NCBI GenBank assembly: GCA_964016885.1
Contig: OZ024748.1
Coordinates: 15,314,001-15,378,000 of the forward strand
Source of the DNA: Eledone cirrhosa
Taxonomy: Eukaryota
Length of the DNA: 64,000 nt
Direction of reading: 5' to 3'
Shown: in pieces, positions 4,111 to 50,968 of the stretch
Numbering within the stretch: position 1 is the first letter of the stretch
How the letters are laid out: the number at the start of each line of letters is the position of its first letter
The notes under the pieces: model-generated
The model's database searches: none
Seen by the model: the letters and a program-made list of their open reading frames with translations, nothing else
What the model was told of the DNA's origin: nothing
Translations under genes and position numbers: made by a program

Positions 4111-4262
4111 TCTCTCTCTCTCGATCTGTCTATCTTCTAGAAGAATTGGCTGTGTAAAGACAATTACATAACTCCTACAAGAAAATCTTGATTTCGTACG
4201 AGTAAAACAGTTCTAGTTTTGTATAAGTCATTTATATAATAAAATAAATAAATATATATATA

Positions 4263-14057: not shown

Positions 14058-14764
14058 TTGTTCTCAGCTGTTAGCCTTCCAGGTCCCATGAAAGGCTTTA
14101 TACTCATCATGAGGTCCTTTTTGAGACAATGTTTTATGGCTAGATACCCTTCCTGGCAACAGCCCTTTTAGTTGCTTTTACAACATACAAGTATATTGTG
14201 TACATATTGTAAACTAGATGCACACATCATCAATAGTTATTCAGTGTTTAAAAGTAATTTATACGACTATCTATTAAAGCTACTAAGAGCTGAGTGGTAT
14301 TTTCTTTATTATATACCTATGTGTTTAAATACGCACATATATATATATATCACGTTTTATATAGAAATGGTTCTACTAATGTATTGAGTACCTTACTAAC
14401 TCTGGTTATCCCCAATAGAATATATACACATGGGTGAGGCAATACATAAGTGATAACGAAAGAAGCAGAATATTCCAAGTGATTGCCGATTATATTAGGT
14501 AAAAAAAGAGAACCTGAATTATGTTGGTTATGTGGTTATGTAATAAGGCATGATGGAATGATAAAGAGACTCATACTGATACAATTCATTTTGAAAATAA
14601 AACAGTTTGGCAATGTTAGTAAAATAACTACGAACATTAAAAGAGTTCAATGTGTAAAGTGGTTGGTGATAGGAAGGGCATCCAGCAGTAGAAGCCATGC
14701 CAAAATGAGAATGTATGTGAGATGTGGTTCCCAGCCTGATTGGGATGCCAATAGGTCTGATTAA

Positions 14765-39424: not shown

Positions 39425-39470
39425 GTGAAACAATTGTTCTCAGTATGGTGAACTAACTGTTGTGTTACCA

Positions 39471-39526
<56 letters not shown>

Positions 39527-39572
39527 TGGTAACACAACAGTTAGTTCACCATACCGAGAACAATTGTTTCAC
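39425..39572. repeat. ~148-bp palindrome: ~50-bp arms around a (TA)n spacer
   Basis: gtgaaacaattgttctcagtatggtgaactaactgttgtgttaccactta and its reverse complement with one mismatch. Confidence 0.95.
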
Positions 39573-42212: not shown

Positions 42213-42404
42213 ATCGAGTTAAATCAGGGGTAACCACGGCAAATAAGATACTCAATACAATAGTAGAGTGAAAACATAAATATTTAATATAGAAATGGCT
42301 TCTACAGGACTAGAAATGTTTCATTCATAAGAAATCATCATTCTTGATGATTGCTTATGAATGAAAGTTCTTGTCCTGTAGAAGCCATTTCTATATTAAA
42401 TATT
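42213..42404 (-). mobile_element. Fold-back hammerhead-family element, decayed copy of 48573-48760
   Basis: ~60-bp inverted arms at 42279-42404 plus a unique flank homologous to the reverse complement of 48687-48760. Confidence 0.85.
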
Positions 42405-46350: not shown

Positions 46351-48267
46351 AGTAAGACAAAATAGTGTCCCAACAATCATAATCATCCATTTATGTCTGC
46401 TTTTCCATACTTGCATGGAGTGGATTGGTCTTCTGCAGTACAGCCTGCTCCAACTCATTGTGTTCTATTATGATCATGATCTTCTCTGTGAGGTTCAATG
46501 CTTTGAGATCAACTTTTCCAGCTTCTTTGAAGACCCGGCTAGCCAATGCAAGCAGGGAAAGTGTACGTTAAATGATGATGATGATGAATGCTGTATAACT
46601 AAATAGTTAAGAATTTGCTTTGCAACAATTGGGTCCTCAATTCATTCCAACTGTGTTATATCTTGGACAAATGTTTTCTACCTAAGCTTTCATTTACCAA
46701 CGTTTCGTGGGGGAGAATACGTGGATAGGAACTGTTTTGAAGACTATCAAATGGAGAGCTGGCCTTGTTACACAATGTGCCACACTGAATTTCCCTGAGA
46801 ATTATATTAAGGGTACACATGTCTGTGGAATACTTAGCTATTTACATGTTAACTCTTAAAGGTATATAACGAGTTAGCACAAAATATCTAAAAGTGGGTT
46901 TAATCAATTGATCAGAGCTATATTTAATCAATTGATCAGAGCTATATAACAATTATAAATATGAAGAGAAAATAGACAAAATAAACCTAATTTTTTTTCA
47001 AAGTCCTGACTGTAGAGTTTCACTGAGTGGTAGCAGCCAGAATGTAACTAAAGTGCAGCAGGGTCATGAGGCTATTGGCTTTTCAATGAAAGGGCGAATT
47101 CTTGAACTGACCACTACAAGTGTAAAATTTTCGAGAGGGAGAATTATTGCATGGTATAACAGTCACAATTATTATGGTATCTTTACTTGTGGAAATCATC
47201 ATGGAAATTTATAGTATTAAAGTAAAGGCTTATTATTCATATCATTAGAGAAAAGGTTAATCCTCCATATTATATCCTTAGTGCTGCATTATTTAAATAA
47301 TATTACATAAACTCTTATTGTAGCCCTAATCTCCATTTGTCTTCCTTTCTTTCTTGTCATTTCTATGTGCCAACATACTTCTCCCCCTCCTCTCTCAATA
47401 GTTTCTATTTGTCACTCACCTCACAACTTACTTTTCTCTTTACTGGCCACTAATTTCTGTCCTTACCTGACTTACACGCAGTCATTAACAACATTTAGCT
47501 GTTTTAACGGCTATTCTTGCATTTGAGTTTTCAAATTCTTTTATGAATTTTAAATAACCTGTTTTAGGGGAAACTTTTACAACAAGACATTTTATTTTAG
47601 TATATGATTTTTTAACATTGGTATTGCTTTTGTATAAAAAAAAAGGCACTAAGAATAAATATACTTCCTGGAATATATATTTTAAAAAACGATAAAGGGA
47701 TGCAGTCACAGCACTGTTTTGTAATTTTCAAGAATGCCTTGCTAATTCAGTTTTGGTGGTACAGGATATTAAGAGATAATTTAACAAGAAAGCCATTACA
47801 TTCCTTTAACAACTGTAATACTGATCGTCAAAACTAACAGATCCTTTCTAGACCCTTCAGCTATAACCAAACATCATAACAACTCTGCTATCCATAACCC
47901 TGCTTTAGTGATGGCATGGTGATTTATAATAAAAATAGCTACGTAGTATATACAACACAAGTTCTGGGGTTGCACCATATTATAAAGTGTTAAAACATTT
48001 GTTTAAACAGCATGTATATATGTTTAGTGTATAATAATACCATGGAAACATACACACACACATTTTTTTTTAATGTTATGTATATATTTCTATGTTTGTT
48101 TCAACCAATTTAGTGAATATTCTGATCTCTGAGCAAATTTCCAATTATATATTGCTAAACAAAATTTTTATGAAAGTTAGTAGCATGCTTGGAATGCTGA
48201 AACTAGTTATTCAATGTAATGTCATATTATATATATATATATTTATCAGTATTCAAATCATGCTAGC

Positions 48268-48286
48268 AATATATATATATATATAG

Positions 48287-48329
<43 letters not shown>

Positions 48330-48336
48330 TATATAG

Positions 48337-48387
<51 letters not shown>

Positions 48388-48407
48388 TATATATATAGTT
48401 ATTTATT

Positions 48408-48451
<44 letters not shown>

Positions 48452-48469
48452 TATATATAGTTATTTATT

Positions 48470-48515
<46 letters not shown>

Positions 48516-48570
48516 TATATATAGTTATTTATTTATATATATGAATATATATATATATATGTATATATAT
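48268..48570. repeat. Minisatellite of (TA)n plus gttatttattt units
   Basis: atagttatttattt repeated about five times. Confidence 0.9.
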
Positions 48571-48580
48571 ATTATAGAAA

Positions 48581-48631
48581 AGCTTCAACAGGACTAGAAC
48601 TGTTTCATTCTTGCGAAATCATCAGGAAGCT
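48581..48631 (-). ncRNA. Type I hammerhead ribozyme motif (antisense twin)
   Basis: AGCTTC-CTGATGA-T-TTC(GCAA)GAA-T-GAAA-CAG(TTCTAGTC)CTG-TT-GAAGCT. Confidence 0.75.
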
Positions 48632-48678
48632 TCCTGATGATTTCGCATGAATGAAACAGTTCTAGTCCTGTAGAAGCT
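48628..48678 (+). ncRNA. Type I hammerhead ribozyme motif
   Basis: AGCTTC-CTGATGA-T-TTC(GCAT)GAA-T-GAAA-CAG(TTCTAGTC)CTG-TA-GAAGCT; three helices and full core; predicted cleavage after GUA at 48672. Confidence 0.8.
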
Positions 48679-48759
48679 CTTCTATATTAAACATTTATAC
48701 TTTGCATTGTATTGAGTACCTTACATACTGTGGTTACCTCCGATTGAACCCGGATTAAC

Positions 48760-48791
<32 letters not shown>

Positions 48792-49424
48792 ATTTATTTA
48801 TATATATGAATTTGTGTGTGTATATATATATATATTAAAACACACACACACATATATATATATATATATTCTATTATCATGTTTCAGTGATAAATTCACT
48901 CATTGGTGGGGATTTAGATTCTGTCTGATAAGATTACTTTTAGATGATAAAATTTAAATCATGTGTCATGTATTATGTATATTGAAGTTTATGAAAAAAC
49001 AAAAACAAAAAAGAGTTATAGTTGACTAAATTCTTTTTAGTTTTAGCTAGAACTATATTGATGGTAGTACACACATAAATGTATGGAGGGGTCGCAGCAG
49101 ATGAAGATAAAAGTTTGTCTCTCTCAGATGAATAATTTTAACTTTGTTTTCTCTCTCTCATGCAGAACTGTTCTGCATTTTGAGCAAAACAAACTCTCAT
49201 TGTGTCTGAATTGCTCTTTTGTTGTTGTTGTTTTTTTATGTCTAAGCTAAGAACGCCAGACACAGAACATTCCATTCCAGGAGGATCTTAGACATTCAGG
49301 AACCACAGAGAGAGGAGTGGTGATAACTGCAACAGCTCAAGTGTACTGGCATAAGATTACATGCTTTGTGCACATCAAGGCATGAGAAAACCTCAGACTG
49401 AAAATAAAAAGTCTGAAAACTAAG

Positions 49425-49730
49425 GACAGCCTCCATGACTTTAATAAGGCCTCATAGAGTAGAGTGAGGTAAAGGAAAGAGAAACCATGATTCATGAGAC
49501 ACTGCAATAGGAAATAGTGGATTAAAATATTAAGGTAGTTTCTGACCCAAAACATGGTCTGAATGCTTAGAATAGATAGCCTCCATGACTTTTATAAGGC
49601 CTCACAGATTGGGGTGAGGAAAAGGAAGGAGAAACCATGATGTATGAGACACTGCAATAGGAAATAGTGGATTAATATATTGAGGTAGTTTCAGACAAGA
49701 AACATGGTTCAAAGACTTACAATAGAATAG
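49425..49730. repeat. ~150-bp tandem duplication
   Basis: agcctccatgacttt...atgagacactgcaataggaaatagtggattaa...aaacatggt twice. Confidence 0.9.
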
Positions 49731-50896: not shown

Positions 50897-50968
50897 GTAA
50901 GAAATCATCAAGAAAATCCTGATAATTTCTTACAAATGAAACGGTTCTAGTCTTGTCGAAGTCATTTT
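50897..50968 (+). mobile_element. Decayed copy of the 48573 hammerhead element with short fold-back
   Basis: gtaagaaatcatcaag...cctgataatttcttacaaatgaaacggttctagtcttgtcgaagtcattt. Confidence 0.7.

Follow-up and report, generated by a model that had tools for sequence, protein, structure and literature searches.

A hammerhead motif on each strand of a TA-repeat insertion in Eledone cirrhosa, read as the head-to-head stump of a Hydra-type Penelope-like element

A palindrome that carries a complete hammerhead motif on each strand, the two sharing one AAGCTT centre, raises the question of how two such motifs came to lie head to head and whether they act together. The locus considered here lies in a 64,000-nt stretch of the Eledone cirrhosa genome (contig OZ024748.1, positions 15,314,001 to 15,378,000), referred to as the window. 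The best explanation overall, which is regarded as very probable, is that two ends of a Penelope-like element (PLE) lie head to head in a TA repeat, where they were likely made in one insertion, probably by the joining of two separately primed cDNAs.

The palindrome, its two motifs and the extent of the insertion

The 114-bp palindrome that an earlier, sequence-only reading placed at 48573-48686 is borne out. Its arms are 57 bp long, its centre lies at 48629/48630 (AAG/CTT), and three pairs are mismatched (48580/48679, 48587/48672, and 48611/48648), at the sites given in that reading: loop II, H17, and just outside stem I. The type I hammerhead motif claimed for each strand is also confirmed, with the CUGANGA core, GAAA, NUH, and three stems. 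The plus-strand motif (48628-48678), which rests on its sequence and on pair counts in the family, has stem I at 48628-48633/48673-48678, CUGAUGA at 48634-48640, GAAA at 48653-48656, a stem III of CAG/CUG plus A15.1-U16.1, and a GUA triplet; its predicted cut lies at 48672/48673. The mirror motif (minus strand, 48581-48631) has GUU and a GCAA loop, and its cut is predicted between 48587 and 48586. Stem III comprises four pairs with an 8-nt loop. Stem II, a detail omitted from the earlier reading, has only three pairs and is closed by U10.1-U11.1, the usual G-C pair (G10.1-C11.1) being absent. The Rfam search that the earlier reading proposed did not return a hammerhead: the window has no hit at the gathering score, and no hammerhead family is among the 18 hits of 48540-48800 at E ≤ 10. 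The microRNA-precursor hits were rejected as generic hairpin matches far under the gathering score.

Element sequence runs beyond the palindrome to 48762 (+90; relative positions count from the predicted plus-strand cut), with TA repeats on both sides, an extension missed in the earlier reading. The whole insertion (48573-48762, 190 bp) has an extent shared with other genomic copies and consists of an inverted tail-less copy and a tail-bearing copy of the element's hammerhead end. The tail-bearing copy (plus strand, 48628-48762, -45 to +90) matches the end of a long natural copy at 92.6% identity across 135 nt. The tail-less copy (minus strand, 48573-48631) spans -45 to about +13, and its outer end merges into the TA repeat. 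The two overlap at the AAGCTT axis (48627-48632) by the self-complementary AGCT that forms the 5′ end of stem I, and we infer the RNA 5′ end to lie at 48628 on the plus strand and 48631 on the minus strand. The axis is supported by 114 exact loci and by 5′-end clustering and TATA spacing in the parents. The 76 nt past the right arm (48687-48762, plus strand) hold the tail of about 70 nt, which corresponds to the 5′ UTR between hammerhead and ORF in full-length elements. The flanks, taken as the target, are a TA-rich microsatellite on the left (48226-48572) and a (TA)n run on the right (48763-48787). Judged by these parts, the locus reads as a short head-to-head stump of a very common Hydra-type PLE in (TA)n.

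The parent element and its family

The motifs had been linked in the sequence-only reading to PLEs with inverted terminal copies, and this link holds: elsewhere in the genome, the same hammerhead and tail flank a reverse transcriptase (RT) plus GIY-YIG frame. A hammerhead match lies within 1.5 kb of the ORF in 17 of 30 ORF-bearing loci; at 8 of these it shares the ORF strand (upstream at 5, downstream at 3), at 10 it lies upstream in inverted orientation, and one locus shows both arrangements. Read upstream from AGCTTC, long copies enter a common 3′ UTR, beyond which one locus (L061) has a broken frame with features of an RT thumb and of GIY-YIG. The same locus (L061:1358-5049) shows two long head-to-head copies about 3.6 kb apart around a broken ORF 3′ half that has its own inverted hammerhead end.

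At locus L119, hammerhead and tail precede the ATG; 48 nt separate the tail end from the ATG, and the ORF starts about 138 nt after the cut. The 474-aa frame of L119 contains YRDDG, CNCLNKEAC, and CDLC/CMH motifs beside conserved E and N, and its GIY-YIG match (PF01541, E = 0.00081) is under the curated cut-off. The coding region measures about 2.1 kb (L119 357-2478), with a 3′ UTR of about 1 kb that has an internal microsatellite (L096). At E ≤ 0.001, the L119 frame has 914 homologues; the best of them shares about 42% identity with it, and no named reference proteins occur among the 914. In 20 aligned homologues, RWK is found in most, together with DKT/DKS and the same linker as in L119; the N-terminal motif of L119 itself reads RWR, and its DKT region is frameshifted. 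Comparison of the L119 frame with solved structures gave 11 matches (E 0.62-0.94), all to caspase-1, which were discarded as chance.

RT followed by GIY-YIG in one frame, with hammerhead-bearing pLTR flanks, places the family among EN+ PLEs. The inverted 5′-truncated copy and one-sided tail are also present in the family, and both are standard for this group (PMC8557442, PMC3846280, PMC2377424). The Hydra clade is marked by a CxCX5C linker, CxxC and CxH by conserved E and N, RWK, DKT, (TA)n targets, and a length generally below 3 kb (PMC8557442). The family shares with this clade the C-terminal GIY-YIG, the CxCX5C linker, CxxC and CxH, insertion into (TA)n, and the type I hammerhead. From its motifs and target, the parent is assigned as a Hydra-type C-terminal EN+ PLE.

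The family also has features of its own. None of the hammerheads in File S2 of PMC8557442 is the same as that of this family, and the supplement text of that source does not contain the family's stem III/loop string. The tail is about 70 nt against 30-40 nt in Hydra elements and, unlike in those elements, most copies are stumps that stop at the hammerhead 5′ edge, so that the two motifs touch (PMC8557442). Inverted PLE copies with an opposite-strand hammerhead are already in print: Penelope-13_HM has an inverted 5′-truncated copy with a hammerhead on each strand (File S2, PMC8557442), and Schistosoma has dual opposite-strand motifs 100-700 bp apart (PMC4209133).

Other known systems share single features. 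As in minimal PLE hammerheads (PMC4209133) and non-LTR retrozymes (bioRxiv 10.64898/2026.07.22.740005), the motifs are of type I, lie in pLTRs, and have a palindromic loop III element. Compared with the minimal PLE hammerheads, stem III has four pairs and an 8-nt loop here and stem II is closed by U-U, not G-C; compared with the retrozymes, dispersed head-to-head stumps in (TA)n are found here, not tandem hammerhead units. Poseidon of Anolis carolinensis (PMC11167929) likewise has an AT-rich target, and two RT start sites bound its tail. It belongs to a different clade, and its ORF starts inside the hammerhead, whereas the ORF here starts about 138 nt after the cut.

The family is abundant. 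A genome-wide copy count, one of the checks suggested with the earlier reading, gave 26,595 exact core motifs in the 3.0 Gb searched (26,205 with a pyrimidine and 390 with a purine at 10.1), and the reversed control gave 0. DNA searches returned 2,008-2,710 candidates, 40 being scored in each. There are 114 loci with the exact 24-bp axis and 612 matches to the unbroken parent junction; of 40 copies anchored on the tail, 20 have an inverted arm next to them. The 100 motifs that head the listing all lie within the first 23.4 Mb of contig C1, and 24 of them make up 12 tight head-to-head pairs (4-17 nt apart). A rough extrapolation from this fraction to the 26,205 motifs gives roughly 3,000 tight twins genome-wide, among which the present locus is an ordinary one.

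A lack of stem conservation and covariation among copies was part of what would have refuted the earlier reading. Stem I in fact covaries between subfamilies, and on this ground the ribozyme fold of the parent is taken to be conserved. In the 23 distinct rows of 30 motifs, hand-picked to span subfamilies, 95.3% of cells pair in standard fashion. Two-sided changes at two stem I pairs (C-G to A-U; A-U to G-C) occur in 13 cells against 4.8 in shuffles, and represent few independent events. Within the family, loop II varies freely and the core and stems II-III are fixed; stems II and III vary across 29 related families. These related elements, from 78 metagenome loci, contributed 58 motifs, with 12 of the 29 families closed by U-U and 10 by G-C. 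The Hydra-type elements among the metagenome loci (L157-L234) fall into G-C-closed and U-U-closed hammerheads.

Decay was considered as the source of the U-U closing pair and rejected. The pair is found here and in most listed core matches of the family, is common in related families, and closes stem II in many Hydra elements (File S2, PMC8557442); it is also a natural hammerhead variant that supports more cleavage than other mismatches do (PMC3088659). The hammerhead is a conserved part of the parent element, with predicted self-cleavage. Loop III (48660-48667), of 8 nt with a central CUAG palindrome, hardly changes from one subfamily to another, in contrast to loop II, and could pair two RNAs.

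Origin of the twin

Each twin appears to have been built at its own insertion, because arms match by subfamily and junction sequences vary. Arms are discordant at loop position -28 in 0 of 51 cases (16.1 expected at random) and at +6 in 3 of 60 (28.1 expected); at the CpG site -25, the count is 10 of 50. The window's own arms are among the three discordant at +6, which we read as a later substitution. Concordance of this kind would be expected whether a single RNA was used, two RNAs came from the same source locus, or one arm was copied from the other. For the window, the 190-bp insert likely stems from a single insertion event.

The 3′ ends fall into two main classes. For 99 of the first 100 motifs on C1, 55 end at +13 to +29, a class in which the alignment runs into the TA flank, 38 end at +81 to +92, and 6 end elsewhere. 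Among 48 motifs with an inverted arm, a tally in which twins with both motifs exact count twice, one tail is present in 43, two in 2, and none in 3. At the one-tailed twin loci, the tail-less arm extends at least 6 nt further 5′ at 12 and the tail-bearing arm at 4, and the ends lie within 5 nt of each other at 23 of 39. These counts are better explained by two cDNAs, each primed from one of the target ends, because tail-primed snap-back cannot extend the tail-less arm 5′. Later deletions could mimic the asymmetry.

A sequence of steps can be proposed. The element protein would cut both strands of (TA)n, and each cut end would prime RT of uncleaved element RNA, one at +90 and the other at about +20. 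Both cDNAs would end by run-off at one shared point and be joined there through the self-complementary AGCT. If the run-off point is the RNA 5′ end, 30 nt below the pLTR TATA box, the stump would be a strong-stop-like cDNA pair without a promoter. This two-primer model is in line with the behaviour of the Poseidon PLE in vitro, where both strands are cleaved and extended, RT starts from two internal sites, and uncleaved RNA is used (PMC11167929). The excerpted text of that account makes no mention of cDNAs joined head to head at the RNA 5′ end (PMC11167929). Uncleaved RNA as template also fits the truncated copies among the first 100 of 255 matches, in which cut-site ends are not enriched: 1 of 34, counted by eye, ends at the cut into TA, and 3 end at another TA, 10 nt upstream of it.

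The position of the axis at -45 likely marks the transcript 5′ end, because copy ends cluster about 30 nt below a TATA box. The 5′ ends of 99 motifs lie at -39 to -52 in 73 (29 at -44 or -45), at -53 to -90 in 2, and further up in 24, so that 73 of 99 copies stop within 13 nt upstream of the core; in rare subfamilies without a long copy in the set, these ends may sit too near the core. Of 44 long copies, 40 have a TATA[AT]ATA whose first base lies between -74 and -78, and its spacing holds in 287 exact matches of the gapped pattern, 100 of them listed. A start about 30 nt below the TATA box is established promoter geometry. Here, 30 nt below the box is -45, the first base of stem I. AGCT alone would not cause the 5′ cluster, because the cluster holds in subfamilies that read AGATTC in stem I. 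In distant relatives, a TATA box is found in 6 of 29 families against 2.0 expected (35 of 5000 rotations), with the interval chosen post hoc. A G at -46, as from cap copying, is present in 13 of 31 listed junctions, but the other arm accounts for at least 8 of these. Splicing into a 3′ splice site at the AG of -45/-44 was another possibility; it was rejected, as the junctions have no upstream exon in common.

From this spacing, opinion leans slightly towards the run-off point at the axis being the RNA 5′ end. The fuller proposal is that the transcript starts on the first base of stem I and that a dimeric enzyme joins two strong-stop-like cDNAs, one per target strand, from two start sites; it is tentative, and could go either way. 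A start-site run-off reading, and the term strong-stop, were not found in the excerpts of the PLE literature searched, which lay mostly outside subscription papers.

A close precedent for the layout is found in the inverted pLTRs of Penelope elements in Adineta vaga, which are also head to head with a junction palindrome, a one-sided tail, and a putative pLTR TATA box and initiator there (PMC3846280). Unlike in A. vaga, the target-site duplication is unreadable here in (TA)n. For A. vaga, self-priming on an antisense template was proposed (PMC3846280), and the main alternative for the present twins follows this idea. It keeps the same element and insertion origin, and derives the second arm from snap-back self-priming of one cDNA (or from an antisense template), with the axis as a pause or microhomology site due to stem I, the pause being one that the stem I mirror in the cDNA would cause. 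Snap-back accounts for arm concordance, some junctions use the stem I mirror sequence (L081, L265, L303), and the near-coincident arm ends at 23 of 39 one-tailed loci agree with it. However, a tail-primed cDNA cannot give the 5′ sequence that is confined to the tail-less arm at 12 loci (4 in the reverse case), and the end cluster, 30 nt below the TATA box, is found also in subfamilies without AGCT. The arm asymmetry here favours two primed cDNAs, and snap-back is considered possible but doubtful.

It is improbable that the palindrome is itself a self-spreading unit, either MITE-like or a retrozyme-like family derived from one fold-back event. The exact 24-bp axis common to 114 loci would be expected of such a unit, but junctions vary by locus, and twins arise separately in many subfamilies with arms matching within each. 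The stump also lacks a TATA box, and no tandem arrays occur among the fetched loci.

The origin of PLE inverted pLTRs and tails is called open in PMC8557442. The value of the family is statistical: its many natural copies obey sharp regularities (two 3′ end sites, a single tail in each twin, and a single 5′ end 30 nt below a TATA box) that make a two-primer, run-off model of PLE insertion directly testable. If the fuller proposal, with its start on stem I, is true, thousands of twins would form a genome-wide record of PLE transcription start and of the origin of the inverted pLTR and the one-sided tail.

Individual twins also deviate from the common pattern. The L056 twin has a full tail on both arms, an exception to the one-tail rule. 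The L043 and L037 junctions contain short reiterated core pieces between the arms, resembling repeated priming or slippage at the join.

Hairpin, ribozyme and decay of the arms

The sequence-only reading had further suggested that transcripts from either direction could be cut and that hairpin and hammerhead might form a conformational switch. Predicted folding supports neither. The whole palindrome forms one predicted hairpin (-84 kcal/mol, z = -19; 0 of 200 shuffles equally good), and within it the ensemble is favoured over the hammerhead fold by 66.4 kcal/mol on the plus strand and 68.9 kcal/mol on the minus strand. For the isolated motifs this gap is 2.6 and 3.6 kcal/mol, and 8 nt of the opposite arm cost 8.3 kcal/mol. 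The predicted hammerhead population falls from about 1e-2 to 1e-6 with 8 nt of complementary arm and to 1e-47 with the whole arm. In read-through transcripts of either strand, the complementary arm emerges first and is predicted to block the hammerhead. With the hairpin favoured by about 66 kcal/mol over either hammerhead, and with the blocking arm, by symmetry, ahead of the motif in transcripts of both strands, a balanced switch is unlikely. The hammerheads in the twin are thus predicted to be shut off by the hairpin.

The twin shows no sign of being kept intact, and its arms decay regardless of the ribozyme. Arm mismatches number 59 of 1889 at core and stem sites versus 45 of 1185 at tolerant sites (Fisher p 0.36), and 39 of 55 twin pairs have a difference at a critical (core or stem) site, in a sample biased towards copies that resemble the window's. 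If transcribed, the hairpin could serve as a substrate for ADAR. Arm differences show no A-to-G bias (9 A>G vs 15 T>C). If read through, twins would yield long perfect RNA hairpins, a possible source of dsRNA.

A two-way ribozyme device under selection, in which hairpin and hammerhead would alternate and A-to-I editing might adjust the balance, builds on the inference of the earlier reading and is now very unlikely. At this locus, both motifs are intact and all three arm changes fall at tolerant sites, for which the chance is about 0.06-0.08, and the fold is conserved in the family. Yet the energies above favour the hairpin on both strands with the blocking arm always first, mismatch rates are equal at critical and tolerant sites, and many twins are without part of one motif. 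Editing of A residues would also strike the conserved A residues of the core (hammerhead consensus, PMC3088659).

An assembly or library fold-back artefact, to which palindromes beside microsatellites such as this one are prone, can practically be dismissed: the arms differ at three positions, the layout follows fixed rules across loci, and three public runs, all from one sample that may also be the source of the assembly, have contigs that cross the axis in look-alike copies and extend over 31 nt beyond it on each side.

A Pfam scan of 8 of the 26 listed long frames in the window matched no family. Further pieces of the same kind are found in the window. A second, older twin of a related subfamily lies at 42218-42404, with the tail-bearing arm on the minus strand and both cores damaged. 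Decayed pieces of the same family include a twin remnant (50901-50961), a single motif remnant (4189-4243), and a tail fragment (14379-14420). At 39425-39572, there is an unrelated inverted repeat with arms of about 50 bp and one mismatch, the arms facing a central (TA)n run; it could represent two element ends in one TA target. A 150-nt tandem duplication, 85% identical, lies at 49425-49724.
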